Part shown: in pieces, positions 18,675-35,339 of the stretch
Layout of the letters: each line of letters opens with the position of its first letter
Position numbering within the stretch: the first letter of the stretch is position 1
Virus record (IMG/VR): IMGVR_UViG_3300047157_000191
Location: 1 to 37,662 of that record
Reading direction: 5' to 3' (one strand)
DNA from: a virus
Lineage: Duplodnaviria; Caudoviricetes
DNA length: 37,662 nt
Notes under the pieces: generated by a model
Database searches by the model: none
What the model was told of the DNA's origin: nothing
What the model saw: only the letters and a program-made list of their open reading frames with translations
Program-made: the position numbers and the translations under genes

Positions 18675-19706
18675 TTGAAAACAAAACGAGGTGTGGTGCG
18701 AGGAGTAGTGGATGGCTATAGCAGCTATTCATTGCATTTAATAAGAGTCATTGAGGGGCTCACTGAATTAGACCGGGACATACACTGTTGGCCAGTCCGA
18801 AGCGAGGCAGGTAAGGCTCCTATACCGAGAGTGGTGATGGAGTCTGTTGTGCATAAGGAGCAGCAAGATGACTGGGAGATGATTGTTCATTGCCCGTCAT
18901 TCAGTCCTACAGGCAAAAAGCAGCTTGTGTATAACACAATGTGGGAGAGCACGAGACTTCATAAGGAGGCAGTGCTGAACTTGAATCAGGCAGACCTGAT
19001 TGTTGTGCCGAGCGACTTTAATTTGTGTTTGTTTAATGCACAGGGAATCAGGAAGACAATGGTCAAGGTCCCTATGGGAATAGACACGGATGTCTTCCAC
19101 TACAGGCCACAGAAACAGGGTTCTGAGTTTGTTTTTGGTGTGGCTGGGAGAACAGCGGCAGGAGGCTGCAGGAAAGGCTTTGAGGACGTTCTCAGAGCGT
19201 GGAAGAAAGCGTTCCCTAAAAGGGTGAAAGATGTCAGGTTAAGCATTAAGTGTTTCCCCGATGACCCTGTAATAGATGTCGATGATGACAGGGTAAGTTT
19301 TACTCGTCAGTTCTGGACAAGGAAAGATCTGGCTAACTGGTATGCGGGGCTTGATTGCTTTGTGAGTGCGTCGAAAGGTGAGGGATGGGGTCTCATGCAG
19401 CATGAGGCTATGGCCACAGGAAGGCCAGTCATTGCAGTTCCCTTCGGGGGAATTACAGAGTTTTTTGATGAGTCAGTGGGTTACCCTGTTGACTTTGACT
19501 TGAGAGAGTCTGAGGCGCATTACTCTAATGGCGGCCTCTGGGCAGCCCCTAAACAGGACAGCTTGATAGACCGAATGCGGGAGGTCCAAAACGAGAGAGG
19601 TGTAGCAAAAGCGTTGAGAGCTTCAGAGCGAGGAATGAAGCTCAACTGGGAGAGCAGCAATAAAAAGCTAGACTCAGTCTTAAGTAAAATTGGATTTTAT
19701 ACATGA
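18675..19706 (+). CDS. glycosyltransferase, GT-B/GT4-like
   Basis: VPMGIDTDVF, RKGFEDVLRAW and SKGEGWGLMQHEAMATGRPVI (EX7E). Confidence 0.92.
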   Translation: MKTKRGVVRGVVDGYSSYSLHLIRVIEGLTELDRDIHCWPVRSEAGKAPIPRVVMESVVHKEQQDDWEMIVHCPSFSPTGKKQLVYNTMWESTRLHKEAVLNLNQADLIVVPSDFNLCLFNAQGIRKTMVKVPMGIDTDVFHYRPQKQGSEFVFGVAGRTAAGGCRKGFEDVLRAWKKAFPKRVKDVRLSIKCFPDDPVIDVDDDRVSFTRQFWTRKDLANWYAGLDCFVSASKGEGWGLMQHEAMATGRPVIAVPFGGITEFFDESVGYPVDFDLRESEAHYSNGGLWAAPKQDSLIDRMREVQNERGVAKALRASERGMKLNWESSNKKLDSVLSKIGFYT

Positions 19707-22973: not shown

Positions 22974-24251
22974 ATGCCACTATCAGTTAACGTAGGCGTG
23001 GGATACAATTTCTCAGCCGGGGAAAAAGTCACCTACACTAAGCTCAACAGGCTTGGGGCTCCCTCAATAACATTCACAGGATCGATTGATTCTAATCAGA
23101 TCACAGACGGTGCTGTTCTTACGTCCAAACTGGAGCAAGGAATCGACATCAATAGTAAGATCAGTGATCACAACTTGTCCTTAGCTAAGCTCGAGGCTGG
23201 GACTCAGGGGCAGCTACTGTATTACAACGCTGACGGCGACCTTGTTAAGTTGCCCCCGGGCAGTGACGGTCAATTCCTCAGAACTAAAGGATCATCTGCT
23301 GCTCCGGAATGGGCAGCTCAAGGAGGATTATCGACGCTTAGTTACGAGGATCTTACTACAGACGGAAATGACAAATACCTAACCACAGATTCCACTGGGA
23401 GTGTGGTGTGGATAAACAAACCAGTCACAACGTCAGTTTCTTCTTACACTTCCTCAAATATTGACGCAATAAGATCCGCTGGTTTTGAGACGATCTCTGT
23501 AGGATTTGTTCCAGAGCACATCCGAGTTACGATGTTTTGCCAGACAACTGACGCATCCACTGGCTATCAGCAAAACGATGAGTTTGAGATAGGTCATAAC
23601 TTTTGGAGTCAGACAGGCGAAAACCGCAACGGCGTTAATGTCATATTCGATTTCTCAAGCAACAGTGTTAGGCTTCAGCTAGAGTCTGCATTTGCGAGTG
23701 CTTCAAACTTCCGCATAATGCATAAGACTAGCGGGGCTTCCGTAGATTGCGATGCAAGCATTCTTAAGCGCTTCGTATTTAAAGTTCGCGCGTGGGAGTC
23801 CGGTTTTTCTAGCTCGGGAAATAGCGGAGGAGCACTAACGAGTGAGCCCGGTTACTATTTCTCAGCGACATCTCCGCAAGCTTCAAGTTACTATATTTTT
23901 GGGACAACCGCATCAGAAAGATCTGTCGCATTCGACCATCAACTAGGAAGTGTTCCCAAACTTGTGCGAGCAGTATTTGTGGCTACAGAAGAGATCAGCG
24001 AGTTAGGCCTTTCGGCTCAGGATGAAGTTGATGTATCACAATTTTTGATTTCATTTGGGGGGGGTTCTCAATGGCATCCACTGCAAATAAAATCGACATC
24101 CTCGCAGGTCTCTCTTGTTAACTCGCTAGGCGTCCCGGGAAGACTTTTGCCTGAATACTCTTATTTAACAAATAGCATCAATGGTCAGCTTACGATTTTA
24201 ACAGATGCTATAGCCAGCAAAATGAAACTGAAAATTTACGCTTGGAAGTAA
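22974..24251 (+). CDS. tail fibre-like protein
   Basis: ITDGAVLTSKL and GQLLYY..G...LPPGSDGQFL fibre repeats; two similar C-terminal domains (VPEHIRV / VPKLVRA, each ending AW). Confidence 0.7.
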   Translation: MPLSVNVGVGYNFSAGEKVTYTKLNRLGAPSITFTGSIDSNQITDGAVLTSKLEQGIDINSKISDHNLSLAKLEAGTQGQLLYYNADGDLVKLPPGSDGQFLRTKGSSAAPEWAAQGGLSTLSYEDLTTDGNDKYLTTDSTGSVVWINKPVTTSVSSYTSSNIDAIRSAGFETISVGFVPEHIRVTMFCQTTDASTGYQQNDEFEIGHNFWSQTGENRNGVNVIFDFSSNSVRLQLESAFASASNFRIMHKTSGASVDCDASILKRFVFKVRAWESGFSSSGNSGGALTSEPGYYFSATSPQASSYYIFGTTASERSVAFDHQLGSVPKLVRAVFVATEEISELGLSAQDEVDVSQFLISFGGGSQWHPLQIKSTSSQVSLVNSLGVPGRLLPEYSYLTNSINGQLTILTDAIASKMKLKIYAWK

Positions 24252-24254
24252 GTA

Positions 24255-24692
24255 ATGCACTTCGACCACTCCATAAAAGAAGACTTCATGCGTCTGACTC
24301 ATAACAATGAGCAGGCGTGGTTATTCGTGGAGACATTCGCCACAAGGTCTCATGACATTGATGACTTCATTGATGGCGATAAGAAGGTCAATGACGAGGA
24401 TGTGATCAAGGCTGAAATGGACTGGATGGTCACACTCACAAGCAATCAATTCTACATAGCAAACAGCAGCTTTCTTCTCCCCCTAATCATAATGAGCTGC
24501 AACGCGTGGCTTGACGCAAATAAGTGGGAGCAGTCAGACGTAGAAGTAAAGAGAGCGCACTCCGATGTGCTCAAGAGTCAATATCACGAGGTTATATTTG
24601 CAACCGTTTACCTGTGCGGCGGCTGGAAGGCGATGAGAGAATTCACAAAACTACACAGGCAATACCAGACAGACAATTATGGGACTATATAG
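24255..24692 (+). CDS. DDxxD isoprenoid-synthase/prenyltransferase-like protein
   Basis: Helical-looking 145 aa with HDIDDFIDGD at residues 33-42. The ORF is secure; the function is inferred. Confidence 0.55.
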   Translation: MHFDHSIKEDFMRLTHNNEQAWLFVETFATRSHDIDDFIDGDKKVNDEDVIKAEMDWMVTLTSNQFYIANSSFLLPLIIMSCNAWLDANKWEQSDVEVKRAHSDVLKSQYHEVIFATVYLCGGWKAMREFTKLHRQYQTDNYGTI

Positions 24693-25722
24693 CGCAGACG
24701 CTCCTCCCCCACGGGATTACGCGAAAGAAACAAGAGACACTTTGCAGGCGCAGGTAGACCTCGCACCAGAGCTCTACGCTGCAGAGGCTAGTCAAGAATA
24801 CGGCAGGCCAGCAGAGGCAAGGCTGAACCTTGAGATCCTTAGGGATGTCATGAGAGGTAGTCAAGGGACTCCCGGGCTGCTTGAGCTCTATGAGCAGGAC
24901 GTAATGCCCGGGCTCGCCAGAGCCGATGTGGCTGGTCTTGATGTCTCAAGGGAAGGCGACATAGCAGCAGTCGAAAGACTAGGCCCTAGAGCCACTGAGG
25001 CCTTCAGGCAAGCCAACCCAGAGCAGGCCGCATTAATGGCAGAGCTCAACAGGCAGGCTCAGTCTGATCTGTCTGCAGGAGCAGGGCTACCACCGTCATT
25101 GTCTCGTGAGCTTGATCAGTTCATTCGTGGGGGCCAGTCTGACCGTGGTATGGGCTACGGTATGGCAGACCTAGGTCAGGAAGCTCTTATTAAAGGAATG
25201 AATGCAGAGCAACTTCAGCGCAACCGTCGATCATTCGCTTCTCAGGTGGTAGGTCTTAATGCTGCTACTTCAGCAGATCCGTTTATGGCTATTCTTGGTA
25301 AGCCCGGTGTAGGTATGGGGGCAGCTCAAGGGTTTGCGGCGCAAGGTCAAGGTATGGTCCCACAGCAATCGTTTAACCCTGAATCAGCATACGCGGGAAG
25401 TCTTGCCGCTGGTAACTACAATGCAGAGCTCAATGCGAACATTGCATCTGCCAATGCGCGCGCTGCCGTTGCCAGTGGAGCTATGAAGTCTATGGGGTCA
25501 ATAGGATCAGCTATGATAACCAAATGCTGGGTGGCTCGAGAAGTCTATGGAGCGAATAACCCAATGTGGCTACTGTTCAGGAACTGGCTTGAAACGCAAT
25601 CACCAGTCTGGTTCCACGATCTCTACGTCAAATACGGCCAACGATTCGCTGGCTGGCTATCTAAGAATGAATGGTTGAAGCCTTCCATCAAGAAGTGGAT
25701 GGACTCACGCATTAAAAACTGA
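24679..25722 (+). CDS. internal virion/ejection protein with C-terminal CFI-box-CTERM-like domain
   Basis: MG...APPPRDY start, A/Q/G-rich helical body, then CWVAREVYG...FRNWL...LYVKYG from C283. Confidence 0.7.
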   Translation: MGLYSADAPPPRDYAKETRDTLQAQVDLAPELYAAEASQEYGRPAEARLNLEILRDVMRGSQGTPGLLELYEQDVMPGLARADVAGLDVSREGDIAAVERLGPRATEAFRQANPEQAALMAELNRQAQSDLSAGAGLPPSLSRELDQFIRGGQSDRGMGYGMADLGQEALIKGMNAEQLQRNRRSFASQVVGLNAATSADPFMAILGKPGVGMGAAQGFAAQGQGMVPQQSFNPESAYAGSLAAGNYNAELNANIASANARAAVASGAMKSMGSIGSAMITKCWVAREVYGANNPMWLLFRNWLETQSPVWFHDLYVKYGQRFAGWLSKNEWLKPSIKKWMDSRIKN

Positions 25723-25734
25723 TCGCATAATACT

Positions 25735-27171
25735 ATGGCATTTTCACAACAATCATATACAGGACAGGGAATCGTTCAGCCTACCGAGAGATCTCGTGTA
25801 GGTGAGTTTCTCGGTGAAGGACTTGCAGGGCTGGGGGCAGGTATCGGTCAAGGGATAGAAAAGTTCGCTCAAAGAAAAGAAGAGATGAAGAAGCGGGAGC
25901 AGTTCAAGAAAGGAACTATCACAGCTCTGACTGCTCTCGGTGCAGATGCAGATCTTCTTAAAGGAATGGAGGCTACAGAACTTGCGGCCTACGCTCAGAT
26001 GTATCCTCAAATTTCTGAAGGTAAGTTTTACTCAGAACTTACAGAAGCAAGGCAGAAACGAGATGTTCCTGTTGACTTTGCATCTCAAATTGATGCAGCG
26101 GAAGCGCGGCTACAGAGAGCTCAAGAGAGCGCAGGCTTTCGTCCTGAGATCACATATGCAAGTGATCAATTTCAAGCTATGCCTGATTCAGCTCAATCAT
26201 TTGCAGGGCAACCAGTCATAAGAAAACCCTTAGAAGATCGAGCTTTAAACATTTTTCTTAGAGGGAAAGAAAGCGAGGCTGCAGTTCAAGACAGGAGCAT
26301 ATACGACATGCTGCAGGAATCTAAGAATATACCAGCAGACTTTAATCCTACAGGTATACAAGGATTCGCTCCTACGAGACCGGAACCAGTAGCTGAACAA
26401 GTCTACAGGACAGCCCCAGTAAGAGGTGCTACGGAAGGCCCTGAAGCTATGCCCGGGCCTTCTGAGGCTGTAGTAAAAGCAGCCAGAGATCTTGACGCTA
26501 TCAGGATTCAAGCAGCCGAGGGTGATACTAGGTCTGAGACTTATCAGGAAATGATGAGACGAGTCTCTGAAACCATTCCTGAACTGGCAGAGAAATACCC
26601 CACGCAAGCTAAGAACCTGTATGAGATGCTTTACCCTAAGCAAGACAAGCTGACACCATCAGAGCAGATTTCAATGATGAAGCTGCAGCGCGAGGTTCAG
26701 GCAAGCGAGGTTGCTGGCTATGGTGTAGCACCATCTGTGCAGATTGCTCAGGACTTTCGTGAGTTTGCTATCCCAACAGGCGAAGGCATTGAAAAGATTC
26801 AAGAACTTATCGACATTGCGAAACAGGGCCTTGCAGGTAAGCTAAGTCCTGAAAACAGGCAGAGAGCAACTAGTATTCAGAAACGCCTTATGGGCGAGCT
26901 TAAAGAGCAAATTGTTGGTGCTGGAGCTGTTTCAGAAGGTGAATGGCAGATATTGGCAGCCGTTATACCGGATGTCACAAAGATAATGTCATTCAGCGAT
27001 GTGAACATCAAGGTTCTCAAAGAGCTTCAGAGCGACCTAAAGGGCAAACTGGAAAACAGAGCCAATGCAATTAGCTGGTCTCCACTGCAGGGAGGATCTG
27101 TAGCTGGCCAGCAGAGGCCCTCAGGAAAAAGAGTGTCATACGGAATGTCGGGTCAACCTGAATTACAGTAA
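25735..27171 (+). CDS. internal virion/ejection protein
   Basis: Gly-rich amphipathic N-terminus (GEGLAGLGAGIGQGI), helical; lies between the other ejection genes. Confidence 0.65.
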   Translation: MAFSQQSYTGQGIVQPTERSRVGEFLGEGLAGLGAGIGQGIEKFAQRKEEMKKREQFKKGTITALTALGADADLLKGMEATELAAYAQMYPQISEGKFYSELTEARQKRDVPVDFASQIDAAEARLQRAQESAGFRPEITYASDQFQAMPDSAQSFAGQPVIRKPLEDRALNIFLRGKESEAAVQDRSIYDMLQESKNIPADFNPTGIQGFAPTRPEPVAEQVYRTAPVRGATEGPEAMPGPSEAVVKAARDLDAIRIQAAEGDTRSETYQEMMRRVSETIPELAEKYPTQAKNLYEMLYPKQDKLTPSEQISMMKLQREVQASEVAGYGVAPSVQIAQDFREFAIPTGEGIEKIQELIDIAKQGLAGKLSPENRQRATSIQKRLMGELKEQIVGAGAVSEGEWQILAAVIPDVTKIMSFSDVNIKVLKELQSDLKGKLENRANAISWSPLQGGSVAGQQRPSGKRVSYGMSGQPELQ

Positions 27172-30100
27172 TGCAAGAACTCTACCTTGAAGATTACGAT
27201 GTCAACTTAGAGTTCCCGGACGAAATGTCTGAGGACAAGATCAAAGACATCATTAAGCGGGATTACCCTGAACCAGACGAAAAACTGGTAGCTCGATTCG
27301 AGAACCCAGAAACGCCATCGTCCTCTCTTACACGGGAGGACTTTGTCCGTTATAAGGCTGTGAAGCCTGAGATGCAGTGGTCAGAGTTTCCCGGTCTTAT
27401 AGCTCAAGCCGCTGGTGTAACTGTTCAGAGAATCGCAGAGAATCTCCCTGCGGCCATAGGCACATACCTCAACATATTTGATCCCGGCACTTCTGCTCGC
27501 ACCTTTATGGAGGGAGCTGCCAGAGGAGCCTATGACACAGAGATCCTCGGCAGGATGGCTAATGACTATCTGGGATCGAAGCTGGATTCATTCGGGGGAA
27601 CAAGCGAGAACGAGACTACTGATCAGTTCAACAACTTTCTCAAACTCAAAGAACTTCAGAATGTCAGGGGTGGTATCGAGCGAGGTGAGGAGTCTGCGTG
27701 GAATGAATACGCAGAGTTTGCTGGACTGGACGCAGCAAAGATTGACCTCGAGAAAGTAGATACCAAGGCCGCAGAGCTCACGGGTGAATTTATTGACCCC
27801 AGTCTTTTAGTCCCTGCAGGCAAGGTAGGGTCAATTGCCGCTAAAGGTATTACTAAGGGGCTATCTGCCCCGACAATTGCAATGGGTAAAGGGCTGTCAA
27901 GAGCGGCAGACCTGAGCAGAGACGCAATTGAACGAGGCAAGAACATTGTCAAGGGAGCTTCAGAAACAATCGATGAAGCAACAGGCGGCCTAGGAAACTT
28001 GGCAGTTCCCGGCGGGGTAGCTGCAGCGGTAGCAGGCGGCATTGTTGGAGCAGGCACAGCTAAGACTTTTGGCACAGTGCTGGCAGCTCCTACTATCCTT
28101 GATGTCTCAGGAGGACTTCTGCGCGGCTTCGGAGAGGCAATGTCCAGCAGTCCTACAAGGACAGGTGGTCTGGGCAGACTAGCTTTACATCAGCCTGACA
28201 CAGTCGCAGGTAAACTTGCAGGAAGACTGAAGTGGCTGGATAAACCTGTTGAGTATGCAGGCAGAGCTACCGCTGGTGCTGCAGTAGGTGCAGGAATTGG
28301 CGGCGCTATAGGATTGGCCTCAGGAGGCCTCGAGGGCCTCGCGCAGGGTATTGGGTCTGGCGGCGTTCTCGGTGCCTTTGGTGGTGGCGTAGGGAGGGCC
28401 GCAGAGGGCCTGACAGGGTCAGCACTCCGCAGAGCTCAAGACAATGATTTTAATCAGTGGATCGAGACCAAAACCCCAGAAGACAGAGTGAGGCTTGAGA
28501 AACTTTCCAGAGAAGACAAGATTGCTCGAATGGACGCAGAGCAGATCTTGTTGCAGTCATCTGTCGAAGTCAGGCATGTGGATCCTGACTTTGTTGTGGA
28601 TGAAAAAGGCACCAAGATGGGCGAGGCAAGCGGCATGATGCGTATCGAGGCAGGCAAGCCAGTTGTGTTCCTGAACACGAACGCAGGCACACGCACAATG
28701 ATTCATGAGACTCTGCACGCTCTAGGCAGGCTCGACGGATTTGACACGCTCGTCTCAAACGTGAAGAACACTTTCCAAAGAATGTATTCTGCTGAAGAAA
28801 TGAACAATTTCATTCAGCAATATGAGAAGCGTCTGGATTCAGAGATTGGCGTTGATCCTCAAAGAGCTCAGAAACTAAAGGACGCAGGATCCACTGACGC
28901 AAAGGTGGACTACATTCTTGAGGAGCTGGCCGCAGAATATTTTGCAAACTACATCACAGGAAAGAACAGCAACTACATCTTTTCAGGTAACAGCTTTTCA
29001 GAATCACTGAAAGGTGCTTTCTCTCGGTTCACCAAAGGTAAACTTGACCGAGTCTATGACGCATTCCAGAGCCCTATCTTCGATCAACAGATCAAGCAGT
29101 CTCGACAGCTCGACAGAGCTATGAAGGATCTGGTCAGGGCTCGAAAGAAAGCAGGCAGGGACGTTGAGACATCGCTGGACGAGCCTGTAAAAGTTTACTC
29201 GGATGCTGACCTTGCAGATGACGCTACCTTCGCAGAGCTCGAGGCGATGGGAGTCGCAAAGACTGATGCTAAAGGCAAGCGGTTCATCATGAAGGATGCT
29301 GAACAGAAGCGTGTGGCCAAAGAGAGAGCTACAACTATCGGTGGCATCCTAGACAACGTAAGCGACTCTGAAGGCGGCCTCATCAAACAGCCAGACGGCA
29401 GCTACAAGGGGACTAGGTTTAGTGCGGGACAGCTCAAGGCATTGCTGGATTCCCCGCTGATCAATGACACTATCAAGGAAGCCTTGAGGCAGCTTGATAA
29501 AGTTTCTCAGTCAGATCAATACGCCAACTTTACTTACGGCGCTTCCACGATGAAGACTAAGCTAGGCAAGACCCGCGCAAGGAACTTGCCTATCAGCAAT
29601 CGTAACGGCCTGATGTATGACATTGTCATCAGCCCCAAAACAGGAACTATTGCTGGTAGGATTCTTGACATGAGCACTACTGAAACCAGAGCCAGTAGAC
29701 TCTACAGGGAGAGCGCAGAGATGCAGAAGGTCTTCGGGTCCGAGGCTAACATGTTTGCAGACCTGCACACATACATCAACGCCCTGACTGCTGGTGAAAA
29801 GCGCACAGCAGAAATTCTAGACAGTCAACGCAAGAGCGACTTTCTTAACAAGATTCTAGCTATTAGAAACGTCAAGGGTAACCCTGAGATACCGCAGGTA
29901 GAGCTTACACCCAGACAGAGAAGACTACAGGAAGGCAAGCAGGATCACCCGTGGAGATCGTTCCGTCTTGATCGTATTGTTGCTATGCAGCAGAAGGAAG
30001 GAAGGCCAGTCATGTCATTCTCTGAGGCTGCCTACCAGAGAGGTCAGGGACATTTCCAGCCTTCCCCTAATTCTGTCAGCGTATCTTCTACTCCTTACAC

Positions 30101-33100
30101 ACCAGCTACAAACGGCGGCGTAACTAGAGAGCCCGGGATCATACGGTTCATCCCTGCATACCACGGAACTCCCCATAAGTTTGATGAGTTTAGTATGTCA
30201 AGAATAGGAACGGGTGAGGGTGCATCTGCTTTCGGGTATGGACTGTATTTTACAGAAACCAGAAAAATAGCTGAACATTACAGAGATAATTTGACTCCTG
30301 ACTTAATCGTGAACGGTGAGATGATGCCAGTATACAGTCTGGTATACGGGGACCCCTTAGGGGCAGACGTTCATGTCATGATTAGAAACTACTTTGAGAG
30401 TGTTAAATCAGGTAGGTACAGGAAGGAGCGTCTTGACGAGATGAAGCGAGACATACAAATGAAACTCATCAAAATAAAGGAAGGAAGAGCCTTTGTAAGC
30501 AGTGGAGTCGAAAAACTTGATGACTTCTTCTACAGGAATAACCGAGCGAGCAGAGGTGACATTGAAGACCCTAAAGGGTATTTGTATGAGGTTGATTTTG
30601 ACGTAGATGATGTAAGCCTCTTGCGATGGGATGACAATTACGACAGTCAGCCCGATTACGTAAAGGAATCTATTAAGCGCATAGGGGATTCAAACGGCAT
30701 CACGAGCGAGAACTATAGACAGGTTATTGATAGGGGAGTGGAGCTTGTGAGTTATACAAGAAATCAAGAAAGTTCTAATACTCCAGAGCACGCTGTTTTT
30801 TTAGATTATTACAACTCAACGAAACACAAGCTGGCAAAACTTTACAAAGAGATACACGGTCTTGGCTTTGGGAGCAGGCCTTTGAGGCAAAAACTTACTG
30901 GAAAAAGAATTTATGAAATGCTTGAGCCAAACGATTTATTTAAAACTGACCGTCAACTCGGCGCTACAAATGTGCTAAAGAACTTTGGCATTAAGGGCAT
31001 AAAATACAAAGACGGTTTCTCAAGAAAACCCAGAGGCAAAGAACAGGTTGCATTCAATTACGTAGCTTTCGATGGTGCAGACATCAAGGTCAAATATAGG
31101 AACGGCAAAGAGGTTCGCCTTTCTCCTAAGGAGGAAATTAAATCTTCACCTGCAGACATCAGGTTCTCTCCTGAGCCTGACAGCCCCGCAGAGGTCAGGA
31201 AACAGATGCAGGAGCCCGTTGAGTCTGGCACTCCTATGAATGGAGTGTTCACGCTGACGCCCGATGTCATAGCCAGATTCAGTCCCGCAGTAAATGATCC
31301 CGGCGTCAACCTTGAGCAGCTAAACGGCAAAAAAGTTTTCTTCATGTTTGCTGACCGCATGCTGGTTGGTGACTACGTCACTCGGTCAGGTAGAGTATTT
31401 AAACTGAGAGGAGGGCCTGATCACCCAGACCTTGCAGACAATCAAGGTAAGCTTGCGTGGGCTGTTGAAGGAGGGGCTGTAGGACCAAGACTCGACAGGG
31501 CTATCAGGATGACTGACGGTATCGGAATTGTTGTTCTTCAAGATGAGCTGGCAGTTGCATCGAACAAAGACTACTCGGAGGTCATGATGGAAGAGCTGAA
31601 GTTTGATATGGAGAACAACCCGGCAGTCAAAAGAGACCTGAAAGAGTTGCTTGAAGACATGTCTGCCGCGATCCGTCAAACAATCAAGAAAAACAGACTC
31701 AGTAAAGACTCCAGAGAAAAGAAGGCCGCAGAAAAAGCAGGCAAAAAATTTACCGAATCAAAGCCTAAGAAATGGGAGACGATTGAAATTAAAAGCCTTA
31801 AAGATCTTGAAAGCATTTTTCCAGAAATGCCTTTCGAGGTTAGAAAGACTATGTGGCAAAAGTTTGCGTCTAAGAAATACAAAGACAAATACGGAGGCAT
31901 TTTCTGGAAGGATGTTGCCGAAGGCATGTCCGCTTACAGGGAGAAAGACGGTTACAGAACTGGTGACGTTGTGAAGGCAATTCAGTTCGATCAATCGGGG
32001 CCATCATCGATAGTTGATCCTCGTGACTTAGGGTTACCTATTCATCCTTCTTACAGGTTTGGCGTTCTTGGAAAATCAATTTCTAACATTAGAGGTAGGT
32101 TGAGCGTTTTTGATATTCTGCGAAAACAATTTGAAAGCAGGGTTGACCCAGTAACAGGAGAACCAAAGTTAGATCAAAGAATTTCTAAAGAAGGGGATGT
32201 AGGAAAATCGTCTTTCAGGACGTTGAGCATGAGAAGCTTAACTGATCCAGATTTTCAACCGAAGATTGGCCCCAAAACTCTTGACCCTCGCACGTATAAA
32301 AGCCCTGTAAAACAAAAGTTCAAAGGTGGAGTGGCTAGAGTGAAAGCAATGGAGAAAGCCCGAAAGGACGCCAATAAGTTTTCTCCTGCGATGGACCCTC
32401 TACCTGCAAGCGCGGAGACCCAAAGGTCTGACGTTACTTCTCGAAGCTACGAAAAATTCAGTGGCATGATTGACGATGAAGTCACTGTGCTCGATGCAGG
32501 CGCTGGAGAGGGCGCAGGATCGAGGATTATGAGAAAAGGTAACAGGACAGTAGACACGCTGGAACCGTTCCCTTACGGCCCCTCAGGGGATAACAGAGCT
32601 AACTGGAAGGATGACCAGTCTCCTACTTATCTGGCTATGGATGAAGTTCCATCAGACAGCTATGATGTCATATCATCTTTCTCTGTTGTCAACGTATTGA
32701 AGCCAGAGCAAAGAACTGATCTCATACAGGGAATTGGTAGAGCTCTAAAACCCGGCGGCAAGGCTCATATCAAGTCAAGGACACCGGGAGATGTGAGGGC
32801 AGCCAAGTCTAAGAAATCTGCAGGAGAGAAGAACGCTTACCTAGTAAAGCAGAAGTCCGGTGACTTCGCGTATCAGGTAGGCTTCACTCAGGGAGGATTG
32901 AAGTCAGAAATCCAGAACACACTCGGAGACGGATTCACTGTCGAGAGCGGGAAGGGACTTGCGGGATCCTACGTGGTTGTAACAAAGTCAGGAACAGGAA
33001 GCGGAGGAGCTAAGTTCTCCCCGGCAAGATCTCTCAACAACCGAGGAGGAGCCGTTTATAACACCCCAGAAGGCCACAGGGCTGTGCAGACATCCAGCCG

Positions 33101-33191
33101 CGCAGGAGTAAGGGTCTATGGCCCAACAGGACGCCGTATAGGCCCTGTGTTTGGATCCGTTGAAGCAGCCGAGCGGTATCTAAGCAAGTAA
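27171..33191 (+). CDS. large polyvalent internal virion protein (membrane region, zincin, ADP-ribosyltransferase, SAM methyltransferase)
   Basis: LEFPDEMS N-terminus; Gly/Ala hydrophobic segments; HETLH (512-516) plus E584; YHGT...GLYFT...YEV...NYVAFD; VLDAGAGEG...LKPGG. Confidence 0.85.
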   Translation: MQELYLEDYDVNLEFPDEMSEDKIKDIIKRDYPEPDEKLVARFENPETPSSSLTREDFVRYKAVKPEMQWSEFPGLIAQAAGVTVQRIAENLPAAIGTYLNIFDPGTSARTFMEGAARGAYDTEILGRMANDYLGSKLDSFGGTSENETTDQFNNFLKLKELQNVRGGIERGEESAWNEYAEFAGLDAAKIDLEKVDTKAAELTGEFIDPSLLVPAGKVGSIAAKGITKGLSAPTIAMGKGLSRAADLSRDAIERGKNIVKGASETIDEATGGLGNLAVPGGVAAAVAGGIVGAGTAKTFGTVLAAPTILDVSGGLLRGFGEAMSSSPTRTGGLGRLALHQPDTVAGKLAGRLKWLDKPVEYAGRATAGAAVGAGIGGAIGLASGGLEGLAQGIGSGGVLGAFGGGVGRAAEGLTGSALRRAQDNDFNQWIETKTPEDRVRLEKLSREDKIARMDAEQILLQSSVEVRHVDPDFVVDEKGTKMGEASGMMRIEAGKPVVFLNTNAGTRTMIHETLHALGRLDGFDTLVSNVKNTFQRMYSAEEMNNFIQQYEKRLDSEIGVDPQRAQKLKDAGSTDAKVDYILEELAAEYFANYITGKNSNYIFSGNSFSESLKGAFSRFTKGKLDRVYDAFQSPIFDQQIKQSRQLDRAMKDLVRARKKAGRDVETSLDEPVKVYSDADLADDATFAELEAMGVAKTDAKGKRFIMKDAEQKRVAKERATTIGGILDNVSDSEGGLIKQPDGSYKGTRFSAGQLKALLDSPLINDTIKEALRQLDKVSQSDQYANFTYGASTMKTKLGKTRARNLPISNRNGLMYDIVISPKTGTIAGRILDMSTTETRASRLYRESAEMQKVFGSEANMFADLHTYINALTAGEKRTAEILDSQRKSDFLNKILAIRNVKGNPEIPQVELTPRQRRLQEGKQDHPWRSFRLDRIVAMQQKEGRPVMSFSEAAYQRGQGHFQPSPNSVSVSSTPYTPATNGGVTREPGIIRFIPAYHGTPHKFDEFSMSRIGTGEGASAFGYGLYFTETRKIAEHYRDNLTPDLIVNGEMMPVYSLVYGDPLGADVHVMIRNYFESVKSGRYRKERLDEMKRDIQMKLIKIKEGRAFVSSGVEKLDDFFYRNNRASRGDIEDPKGYLYEVDFDVDDVSLLRWDDNYDSQPDYVKESIKRIGDSNGITSENYRQVIDRGVELVSYTRNQESSNTPEHAVFLDYYNSTKHKLAKLYKEIHGLGFGSRPLRQKLTGKRIYEMLEPNDLFKTDRQLGATNVLKNFGIKGIKYKDGFSRKPRGKEQVAFNYVAFDGADIKVKYRNGKEVRLSPKEEIKSSPADIRFSPEPDSPAEVRKQMQEPVESGTPMNGVFTLTPDVIARFSPAVNDPGVNLEQLNGKKVFFMFADRMLVGDYVTRSGRVFKLRGGPDHPDLADNQGKLAWAVEGGAVGPRLDRAIRMTDGIGIVVLQDELAVASNKDYSEVMMEELKFDMENNPAVKRDLKELLEDMSAAIRQTIKKNRLSKDSREKKAAEKAGKKFTESKPKKWETIEIKSLKDLESIFPEMPFEVRKTMWQKFASKKYKDKYGGIFWKDVAEGMSAYREKDGYRTGDVVKAIQFDQSGPSSIVDPRDLGLPIHPSYRFGVLGKSISNIRGRLSVFDILRKQFESRVDPVTGEPKLDQRISKEGDVGKSSFRTLSMRSLTDPDFQPKIGPKTLDPRTYKSPVKQKFKGGVARVKAMEKARKDANKFSPAMDPLPASAETQRSDVTSRSYEKFSGMIDDEVTVLDAGAGEGAGSRIMRKGNRTVDTLEPFPYGPSGDNRANWKDDQSPTYLAMDEVPSDSYDVISSFSVVNVLKPEQRTDLIQGIGRALKPGGKAHIKSRTPGDVRAAKSKKSAGEKNAYLVKQKSGDFAYQVGFTQGGLKSEIQNTLGDGFTVESGKGLAGSYVVVTKSGTGSGGAKFSPARSLNNRGGAVYNTPEGHRAVQTSSRAGVRVYGPTGRRIGPVFGSVEAAERYLSK

Positions 33192-33336: not shown

Positions 33337-34356
33337 TTAAGGAAGTATCTGAGACAGGAACTTCTTAGCATCTTCCGCTTCTTTCTCGTAAGAGATCAAA
33401 TCAAGAAATCTTTTACGACTGTTGATTCCCATAGCGGTAGCTACTTCAGGGTTCATCCACTTCCGTATTGCTTCGCAATTCTCGCTGTCCGTGCCTGAGT
33501 CTATGTCGATGCAGTTGTGACCGGGTTCAAATAACTTGTCTGCGAGCTCCCCCCATTTGTGATGCTCTGTCATGTTAGTTATCACTGCCCTGCCTGAATA
33601 CATCCAGCCCATATTGGAATGTCCTAGGCCGCCAAAAACTTTAGTAGTCCAGCCCAGAGTTGACTGCCTCATTTTCTCATAGACTCCATCAGTCCCGTGC
33701 AGCAATCCGTCAGGGCAATCGACTCCGTAATATTTAAAGTCAAATTCAGGAAGGAGTTTCTTATACTTATGATACAGCTCAGGGAACATGTAGCCGCTGG
33801 TTACGCTATGAATATTCTTAGAGTTGTCTGGAATATCTTCGTGCCTGTATATGCCCGTGTTAATCTCTTGATTCACCAGCACATCAATATCACTGCCGCC
33901 GGGATGAGGAACTGACCTTATGACGTTTCCTAGGACCTCTCTTCGATCAATATTTCCTACATGACACACTAGAGTTGACTTTGGTTTAACCTGAGAAACC
34001 AGATCCTTCCACGCATCGTAATGACACCAATGAGTAGGCATTACAACATCGAACTTCATGCCTTCAAACACATCAAATTCCACTGCCTTCTGATAGTATT
34101 TATGACACTTATTCCATATGTGGTGTACTCCGTCTTCCAGCTTATATTTTTCACAGAACGGGTGGTCTCCAGAATTCGGTTCTAGGTATTGCTTAAACAA
34201 TGAGTCGCAACCGTGAGCCTTATTCATTGTCCAGTAACCTTTCTCTGCCCACTTCATCCCTAGCGGCGTGTAAAGCTGCCAGCCCAGTCTCTTCTCAAAC
34301 AGGCAGTGCAGCGAATAAAGTAAGTCTCTATGATGTGTGTCTACTAGTATTTTCAT
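33337..34356 (-). CDS. glycosyltransferase-like protein (divergent GT-B)
   Basis: MKILVD start; GGLGHSNMGWMYSGRAVI in the GT-B signature position; coupled to a clearer GT gene. Confidence 0.6.
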   Translation of the reverse strand: MKILVDTHHRDLLYSLHCLFEKRLGWQLYTPLGMKWAEKGYWTMNKAHGCDSLFKQYLEPNSGDHPFCEKYKLEDGVHHIWNKCHKYYQKAVEFDVFEGMKFDVVMPTHWCHYDAWKDLVSQVKPKSTLVCHVGNIDRREVLGNVIRSVPHPGGSDIDVLVNQEINTGIYRHEDIPDNSKNIHSVTSGYMFPELYHKYKKLLPEFDFKYYGVDCPDGLLHGTDGVYEKMRQSTLGWTTKVFGGLGHSNMGWMYSGRAVITNMTEHHKWGELADKLFEPGHNCIDIDSGTDSENCEAIRKWMNPEVATAMGINSRKRFLDLISYEKEAEDAKKFLSQILP

Positions 34357-35339
34357 ATGTTAAGGAATTGCCTCCATTTTTCAGTTACGCGAACAGAGTC
34401 CCAATTACGATAAGCCATCGCCTTTTGGCACTCACTTATGTCCCTCATTTTTTGAGGTGATGAATCTAGAAATGCTGAAGCTTTATCAATCATGTCATCG
34501 TCGTTTTCCGCTAGTTGTTCAGGGAGCAAAAGATCATTTATCTCGCTAGGCCAGCCTAGGTCTTTATAAGAGACTACAGGCAATCCCGTGAACATTGCTT
34601 CCATCAGTGAAAGAGTGTAAGGCGCAGGATAAGTCCCCCCATACCAGCAAGCATTATGGTTCCTCATGTGAGTCAACATCTCAGCGTAGCTGGGTATACC
34701 TCGAGAGTTCTCGGTTCCTTCGTTTCCTGTGCCGTAAAGCCTTACAGGAATGCTCCTCTGCATATGGTGCCACCTAAGGTAATTGCAGTTCTTGTCCCTA
34801 AATTTAATAGACTGCACGGTTGTCATGAGTTCCTTAAGACCACCAGCCCACTTAGGGAAGTCTTCCCTGAATTTGCAGAAAGGAATCAGTGCGTCTTCTT
34901 TTATTTTACAATCATAATTGTTCACCTTGCTATACCGAATTAACTTTACTCCGAGCTCTTTTATGCGGTGCAAGTGTTCATCGTTCTTTTCGTTGATTTG
35001 GCCAATGTCTCTCCAAATAACATTCCTTCCCTTGAGCACTTCCTGATTCTTAATAATCCAGTCAAAATTATGCATGACGATTATTGTATCGAAGCAGTCT
35101 AGAAGCTCTTCACTTAAATGCTCCCTGTGATCTATTCCTTTCCTGTTTTCCAGAATCCGGTGGAACGCTTTAACCCACTCTGGCTTATAATCAAGCTTGA
35201 TACCGGGCCTCGTTGTTGTTGGTTTACCGCTCTCAAAGTAAGCTCCCATAGGCATTACCTTAACGCCGGGAATCGTTAGAAACATTCGTAGCTCATCAAA
35301 TTCAAGGACCTCGTGACAGGACAGATATAGTATGTTCAT
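34353..35339 (-). CDS. glycosyltransferase, GT-B/GT4-like
   Basis: MNILYLS start; PYTLSLMEAMFTGLPVV. Confidence 0.8.
   Translation of the reverse strand: MNILYLSCHEVLEFDELRMFLTIPGVKVMPMGAYFESGKPTTTRPGIKLDYKPEWVKAFHRILENRKGIDHREHLSEELLDCFDTIIVMHNFDWIIKNQEVLKGRNVIWRDIGQINEKNDEHLHRIKELGVKLIRYSKVNNYDCKIKEDALIPFCKFREDFPKWAGGLKELMTTVQSIKFRDKNCNYLRWHHMQRSIPVRLYGTGNEGTENSRGIPSYAEMLTHMRNHNACWYGGTYPAPYTLSLMEAMFTGLPVVSYKDLGWPSEINDLLLPEQLAENDDDMIDKASAFLDSSPQKMRDISECQKAMAYRNWDSVRVTEKWRQFLNI

Follow-up and report, generated by a model that had tools for sequence, protein, structure and literature searches.

A small isoprenoid-synthase-like protein encoded before a likely phage ejection gene, and its possible role in modifying the N-terminal tip of the ejection protein

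Introduction

What is the function of the small gene that stands directly before the ejection genes in podophage-like gene orders? The gene is conserved, and in the literature searched no chemistry has been demonstrated for it. The question is posed here by a virus record of 37.7 kb (37,662 nucleotides, referred to below as the window), in which a short reading frame, ORF A, runs into the start of ORF B, which likely encodes the first ejection protein. An earlier note on this DNA had proposed that ORF A is a prenyltransferase-fold enzyme that takes the place of an acyltransferase and attaches a host isoprenoid to the ejection protein, either at its N-terminal Gly or at Cys283.

The computational analysis described here leads to a related reading, to which we give about even chances: ORF A, a predicted half-size Mg-dependent prenyltransferase, attaches a host isoprenyl group to the N-terminal tip of ORF B, most probably at Tyr4 and otherwise at the amine of Gly2. 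The reasoning is that an isoprenoid-synthase-like protein swaps with acyltransferase-like genes and that the first residues of ORF B change along with it, which suggests that ORF A lipidates the start of ORF B.

Gene order and features of the window

The window encodes a terminase, the major capsid protein, a 746-aa virion protein and fibre-like genes, followed by ORF A, ORF B and two further proteins of 478 and 2006 aa (Table 1). The last three genes are of rising size (347, 478 and 2006 aa) behind the 746-aa virion protein and the fibre-like genes, and this podophage-like order of ejection genes is matched in phage CF418P1. With gene order as its sole basis, ORF B is likely to be the first ejection protein. 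The features on which the earlier note was built are present in the sequence: a 145-aa ORF A with HDIDDFIDGD at residues 33-42 and a 14-nt overlap with ORF B, whose product starts Met-Gly and has a single Cys (residue 283) opening a C-terminal domain of 65 aa. The proposed linkage of ORF A to a presumed ejection gene also holds, with ORF B as the next gene after ORF A in all 27 close loci.

ORF B has no match in Pfam, NCBIfam, PHROG, the PDB sequences or isolated phages, and the 478-aa protein has no significant family match in Pfam, NCBIfam or PHROG. Matches to phrog_4287 (DNA ejection protein) and to phrog_6121/8003 (virion proteins) were obtained for proteins encoded downstream of distant homologues of ORF A; profile comparisons of ORF B with two other families found downstream of ORF A homologues were not significant. 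A scan of the window for promoters and terminators gave results at chance level.

Several other genes of the window vary or carry recognisable domains. The C-terminal part of the 2006-aa protein (27171-33191) differs among close relatives. The fibre-like gene ahead of ORF A (22974-24251) keeps its N-terminus, while its C-terminal half (about 296-437 aa) is swapped among phages whose ORF A is 97-100% identical. One clear GT4-type glycosyltransferase lies in the tail region (18675-19706), and a weaker glycosyltransferase match, with a neighbour of similar size, is found on the minus strand (33337-35339).

Table 1. Positions of ORF A, ORF B and the genes that follow, numbered along the window
Feature	Position	Strand	Description
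ORF A	24255..24692	+	145 aa; half-size class I isoprenoid-synthase-like, phrog_21390 match; predicted prenyltransferase
ORF A motif H33-x-x-D36-D37-x-x-D40-x-D42	24351..24380	+	codons 33-42, HDIDDFIDGD; His33 at -3
ORF B (whole)	24679..25722	+	347 aa, start MGLY
ORF B N-terminal tip Met-Gly-Leu-Tyr	24679..24690	+	putative acceptor: Tyr4 or Gly2 amine
ORF B core	24679..25524	+	282 aa, Ala/Gly/Gln-rich, without Cys or Trp; by gene order, likely the first ejection protein
ORF B C-terminal CWVAREVYG (CWV) domain	25525..25722	+	Cys283 to end, 65 aa; optional, mobile appendix, weakly CFI-box-like
478-aa protein	25735..27171	+	likely second ejection protein by gene order
2006-aa polyvalent protein	27171..33191	+	ART-PolyVal PF18760 (E 2.7e-7); methyltransferase PF13489 (E 1.6e-8); likely third ejection protein

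The fold of ORF A

The AlphaFold model of ORF A (pLDDT 95.4) consists of five helices. Of the 50 highest-ranking rows in a VIA structural comparison with 48,161 chains, 47 belong to prenyl-diphosphate synthases, terpene synthases, MoeN5 or UbiA-type enzymes. The best match is a 188-aa heptaprenyl diphosphate synthase chain, which we take to be a non-catalytic subunit; its Z of 9.1 (rmsd 3.4, 133 residues aligned) is modest, as the tool cautions that helical bundles in general may reach values of up to about 13. A second structural look gave human GGPPS as the best match (Z 8.2). Matches at Z 7-9 can mirror a common helical arrangement. In profile comparisons, the DDxxD of the family aligns with each of the two Asp motifs of MoeN5 (E 0.12), and no significant match was obtained to Escherichia coli IspA (probability 0.4).

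An isoprenoid-synthase fold is accepted for the ORF A model because a single superfamily dominates the structural list and because the profile, independently, aligns DDxxD with both MoeN5 motifs. The fold proposed earlier is supported by the VIA comparison, whereas a Foldseek check of the model against the PDB yielded no match at E ≤ 0.001. A reading as an HD-domain or MazG/dUTPase protein was also considered; D34 is not conserved, and no such protein occurs in the top 50 VIA rows. A complex prediction of ORF A with residues 2-45 of ORF B and Mg scored 0.01 and is given no weight here.

Conservation within the ORF A family

ORF A matches phrog_21390, a family of unknown function, at E 5.6e-14, and a profile search at E ≤ 0.001 places it in a family of 1,028 representatives (clusters at 50% identity). 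Pfam, NCBIfam and PDB sequence searches with ORF A returned nothing significant. In the ESM Atlas it falls among 30 unnamed viral clusters, and the named neighbours (DUF2600, HEPPP_synt_1 and polyprenyl_synt) score 0.77-0.78, which is a lead only.

An alignment of 134 sequences, comprising ORF A itself, 10 close homologues and 123 of 148 further listed representatives (those left out being mostly long fusions and fragments), was used to examine the motif. Since DDxxD is found 4 times in the 10,288 aa of the 26 ORFs of the window, it is the conservation of the motif, and not its bare presence, that counts as evidence. The Asp residues picked out in the earlier note are indeed kept: D36 and D40 are invariant (134/134), and D37 is found in 132 of the 134 rows. 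D/E42 is present in 121 rows, D87 in 113, K/R107 in 130, R135 in 128 and H33 in 105. The conservation of the acidic and basic residues holds across 23-81% identity. None of the 134 members reaches PF00348 at E ≤ 0.1, and there is a single weak match to SQS_PSY (E 0.092).

In the collection searched, the sole cultured phage with a homologue of ORF A is Achromobacter phage CF418P1 (L029:5369-7031, OQ817832), where the following gene starts MGCM and ends in a C-terminal Peptidase_S74. Three family members are tandem proteins with two copies of ORF A (P0017, P0018 and P0020); because of these, ORF A probably works as a homodimer. Other fusions occur: the ORF A domain is joined to a CrtC lipocalin domain in P0101 (E 7e-12) and to an uncharacterised N-terminal domain in P0119.

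The slot upstream of ORF B and its occupants

To avoid selection on ORF A, loci were fetched by homology to ORF B. In the best 80 of 167 viral loci, the gene directly upstream of ORF B belongs to one of four classes: ORF A in 30 loci, and genes here named G1, G2 and G3 in 38, 9 and 2 loci, respectively; in one locus none was detected. The profiles of G2 and G3 were built from the same 80 loci in which they were counted. Each slot holds a single occupant (79 of these 80 loci) and never two.

G1, the commonest alternative to ORF A, has a GNAT fold in its predicted structure: the VIA list of the model (pLDDT 88) consists mostly of GNAT acyltransferases, with a best Z of 6.9 (rmsd 3.3, 102 residues aligned). 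Foldseek of the G1 model against the PDB found no match at E ≤ 0.001 and the ESM Atlas no usable match, and the G1 profile was not significant against either T7 gp13 or a phrog_610 protein. G2 and G3 appear GNAT-like by eye, with one weak Pfam match for G2 (E 0.095). Given a single occupant per slot and the GNAT fold of G1, the mutual exclusion of ORF A and a GNAT-fold gene that had been predicted passes its test, with no double occupancy in the 80 loci.

Stand-alone G3 is paired with tips that carry Cys at position 3 (MACF, MGCF and MGCG) in 3 of 3 loci (L181, L182 and L350). In three proteins (P0063, P0065 and P0086), the ORF A domain is fused to a domain that weakly matches G3 (E about 1e-4). 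Together, these fusions and the Cys3 tips beside G3 hint at a double modification. A Verrucomicrobia assembly contains, on a contig of 40 kb, a relative of ORF B together with a G1 gene (L351), a weak hint of the host of the wider phage group.

The N-terminal tip of ORF B changes with the occupant of the slot

The first residues of ORF B differ according to the gene that precedes them. Among the best 80 of 167 viral loci, all 30 with ORF A have Tyr, Trp or Cys at residue 4 and none of the 50 others does; the tips of the latter are mostly MG-S/T with a nearby Lys. A metagenome set, which overlaps the viral set, gave the same picture (55/55 with ORF A vs 0/20 without; best 80 of 426 loci, less 5 in which the start was missing). 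When distinct ORF B sequences were pooled, the counts were 62/62 for those coupled to ORF A and 0/60 for the others, and in 60 of the 62 the residue is Tyr. Gly2 is common to the ORF A loci and their GNAT-coupled relatives; it is residue 4 that separates them.

Part of this covariation could be explained by inheritance of the tip together with the cassette. In the clade of the window, the stop codon of ORF A falls in codons 4-5 of ORF B, and the tip therefore travels with ORF A. As the sole cause of the pattern, reading-frame overlap was rejected: Tyr, Trp or Cys at residue 4 is kept in five loci where the two genes do not overlap (L030/L176, L031, L035, L173 and L185). The MGLY tip also recurs beside an ORF A homologue of only 23% identity (L173). 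In a tree of 75 ORF B cores, from which the tip and the CWV domain were removed, ORF A changes 6 times, at least 5 of them forced by supported branches. The tip follows ORF A in 5 of 5 independent pairs (sign test, p=0.0625).

Does the tip receive a chemical group, or is it simply held? ORF A might be a non-catalytic or vestigial chaperone that grips the tip of ORF B, for example for loading into the procapsid, with the GNAT-fold occupants doing the same job and the tip serving as a binding epitope. The best structural match of ORF A and its single Asp motif are compatible with this, as is a second ejection family with MSGGG tips, which lack an obvious side-chain acceptor. In that family, ORF A homologues precede the ejection gene in 59 of 70 loci and another gene in 11 of 70, and the tip is unchanged by the swap, which counts against the reading preferred here; the other gene belongs to phrog_610 (function unknown) in 5 of 5 cases tested. 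However, the invariant acidic motif with K/R107 and R135, retained over the whole range of identities, is typical of a metal-diphosphate site, and the alternation of two unrelated enzyme folds in one slot is more simply explained by chemistry than by binding. We regard a chaperone as unlikely.

Under the preferred reading, in which the tip is prenylated, the acceptor residue may differ between clades. In a FastTree phylogeny of ORF A, the clade with Tyr4 lies within a group of clades whose tips read MGLC, MGCC or MGCL (support 96), and Tyr4 thus appears to replace Cys. The start of the downstream protein could be used in 107 ORF A loci, once 11 duplicates or wrongly called starts had been set aside and 6 proteins had been restarted at their second Met. 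Of these 107 tips, 61 (35 of 58 after dereplication) have neither Cys nor an aromatic residue at positions 2-4, and 106 have a small residue 2 (G, S, P or C). The first of these counts weighs against the preferred reading; together they suggest either that acceptors vary by clade or that the alpha-amine is the common acceptor. This sampling of neighbourhoods leaves out clades of three alignments (A2, A4 and A6), in which no sufficiently conserved stretch was available.

The residue three before DDxxD is His33 in ORF A of the window and Gln or Glu in other clades. Among 54 rows (4 more were set aside for uncertain starts), His occupies this position in 17 of the 18 that have a Cys or Tyr tip and in 3 of the 36 that do not; with only 2 independent pairs behind it, this link counts as a lead. 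Some proteins downstream of ORF A homologues (L112, L116, L057 and L073) have leaders of 20-28 residues ahead of a Cys or a run of Gly, which suggests cleavage before modification; L112 and L116 are paired with a His33-type ORF A.

The small residue 2 in 106 of 107 loci fits Met removal and a free amine, and so bears on a further possibility: that ORF A modifies the tip with a non-prenyl donor (another diphosphate-activated or a nucleotide-linked group), or that it always acts on the alpha-amine, residue 4 serving for recognition only. A phosphoribosyltransferase indeed stands among the UbiA-type relatives in the VIA list (row 29). Yet the top structural neighbours are prenyl-diphosphate enzymes, it is residue 4 and not Gly2 that distinguishes ORF A loci from GNAT loci, and the CrtC lipocalin fusion in P0101 speaks against another donor. 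We consider this possibility somewhat more doubtful than the chaperone.

Alternatively, ORF A might act on a small molecule or on the host isoprenoid pool (as a diphosphatase, a chain-length modifier or a partner of a host synthase), being simply carried along in a recombination cassette that includes the first codons of ORF B. The resemblance to small subunits of heteromeric synthases and the position of the ORF A stop codon, by which the tip is carried along, would be expected in such a case. The persistence of Tyr, Trp or Cys at residue 4 in the five non-overlapping loci and beside ORF A homologues of 20-42% identity would not, and neither would the place of ORF A, which throughout the family immediately precedes one class of gene; an action on small molecules is therefore improbable.

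The C-terminal domain of ORF B

Cys283 had been put forward as the second candidate acceptor. It is the only Cys of ORF B, and it is invariant in the CWV domain (20/20 rows). Among 25 complete ORF B proteins beside close ORF A homologues, 18 have the domain, while 7 end where it would begin and hold no Cys at all. In the metagenome loci, 25 of 51 complete ORF B proteins coupled to ORF A are without any Cys, and in the best 80 of 167 viral loci the domain is present in 12 of the 50 without ORF A. In the ORF B tree, the domain changes 16 times and does not follow ORF A (0.8 same vs 0.9 opposite). With its domain so often missing and uncorrelated with ORF A, Cys283 is contradicted as an obligatory target, and its prenylation by ORF A is very improbable indeed.

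Unrelated proteins also carry the domain at their end, among them the product of gene 25 of HMO-2011, a phage in which tblastn found no ORF A homologue. It has no sequence match in the PDB. Like CFI-box-CTERM (NF041770), it is a Cys-initiated, 65-aa C-terminal appendix, aligning to model positions 1-65 of 69; it differs in scoring 12-14 bits against a cut-off of 40 (12.4 bits for the domain of the window, and 11-14 bits in 5 of 18 proteins). Its place is taken by Peptidase_S74 (PF13884) in all 3 of the distant downstream proteins that were tested. The CWV domain is a separate and optional appendix, independent of ORF A and probably removable, and possibly a new self-cleaving or sorting domain. 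CWVAREVYG domains are found on both phage and bacterial-type proteins (P0186, P0194, P0198, P0204 and L352:6001-6189) and are gained and lost among near-identical phages.

Comparison with known systems

Three kinds of known protein can be compared with ORF A. Firstly, small subunits of heteromeric prenyl diphosphate synthases have no catalytic Asp motif, and the large subunit is encoded alongside them. ORF A differs from these in its invariant DDxxD, and no synthase gene was found among the window ORFs scanned. Such small subunits (5h9d_D, 9kp1_A and 3aqb_A), together with the trans-prenyl diphosphate synthases of PF00348 and MoeN5 (5b00), are the closest structures to ORF A (Z 5.6-9.1, with the whole of ORF A aligned). 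Members of PF00348 have two Asp-rich motifs in about 300 aa, whereas ORF A has one in 145 aa. It further differs from all of these structures in its low identity (8-14%), in having no second Asp motif and no Pfam match, and in that no partner subunit was found in the window.

Secondly, T7 gp13 (PF11090), which we take to be GNAT-like, and G1 resemble ORF A in occupying the same slot, in their small size and in preceding directly a protein with a small second residue; they differ in their unrelated fold and in the presumed donor. T7 gp14 begins MCW. It forms an open channel in lipid bilayers according to the accessible text of PMC8954989, in which the term 'acyl' does not occur. Acylation of ejection proteins by the GNATs of this slot was not found in the literature searched.

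Thirdly, trans-IDS-like peptide prenyltransferases exist, among them ComQ, which is without a true SARM (PMC10853753 and PMC13290415, accessible parts). ComQ (IPR033965), PalQ, the P domain of ChrPC and Ord1 share with ORF A the isoprenoid-synthase fold, an Asp-rich metal motif and an adjacent substrate gene. ORF A is unlike ComQ and PalQ in its length of 145 aa, its one motif, its putative virion-protein substrate and its putative Tyr/Cys or amine acceptor. In the accessible text of PMC13290415, every characterised enzyme of this type acts on Trp, whereas there is no Trp in residues 1-282 of ORF B. The acceptor-binding Q197 of PalQ lies three residues before D200 (PMC10853753, accessible part), which is the spacing between His33 and D36 in ORF A; the proposed equivalence is based on this spacing and on a non-significant alignment to the SARM of IspA.

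A proposed mechanism

If ORF A is a prenyltransferase of the ORF B tip, its action could proceed as follows. DDxxD, K107 and R135 would bind the Mg-diphosphate of a host prenyl diphosphate and ionise the latter. A Tyr or Cys acceptor would be oriented by His33, which stands at -3, as does the acceptor-binding Gln of PalQ. Met would be removed from ORF B and the tip alkylated ahead of packaging, and the lipid may then help the ejected protein to enter the envelope or to hold in it. The GNAT occupants would reach the same end by acylation.

It is tempting to extend this to a wider proposal, which we hold more tentatively than the reading for the window itself. Tailed phages may lipidate the tip of the first ejection protein by means of interchangeable enzyme-plus-tip cassettes, some working by GNAT acylation and others by prenylation. 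ORF A would then be a minimal, 145-residue homodimeric prenyltransferase, and its acceptor (Cys, Tyr or a Ser/Pro terminus) would be set by the residue three before DDxxD.

Implications

The literature searched yielded neither a phage prenyltransferase nor a phage virion protein that is prenylated, and the words 'phage' and 'virus' are absent from the accessible text of PMC13290415 on peptide prenyltransferases. If the proposal is true, it would amount to phage-encoded protein prenylation, by an enzyme directed at Tyr or Cys whose fold has until now been known, in peptides, for the prenylation of Trp only. A very small prenyltransferase with a new acceptor chemistry would, if confirmed, be useful for peptide lipidation. 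As two unrelated transferase folds appear to alternate in the slot, each with its own tip, the model of a lipid tag is testable. The question that the gene of this slot addresses is that of the first contact of ejected podophage proteins with the host envelope.
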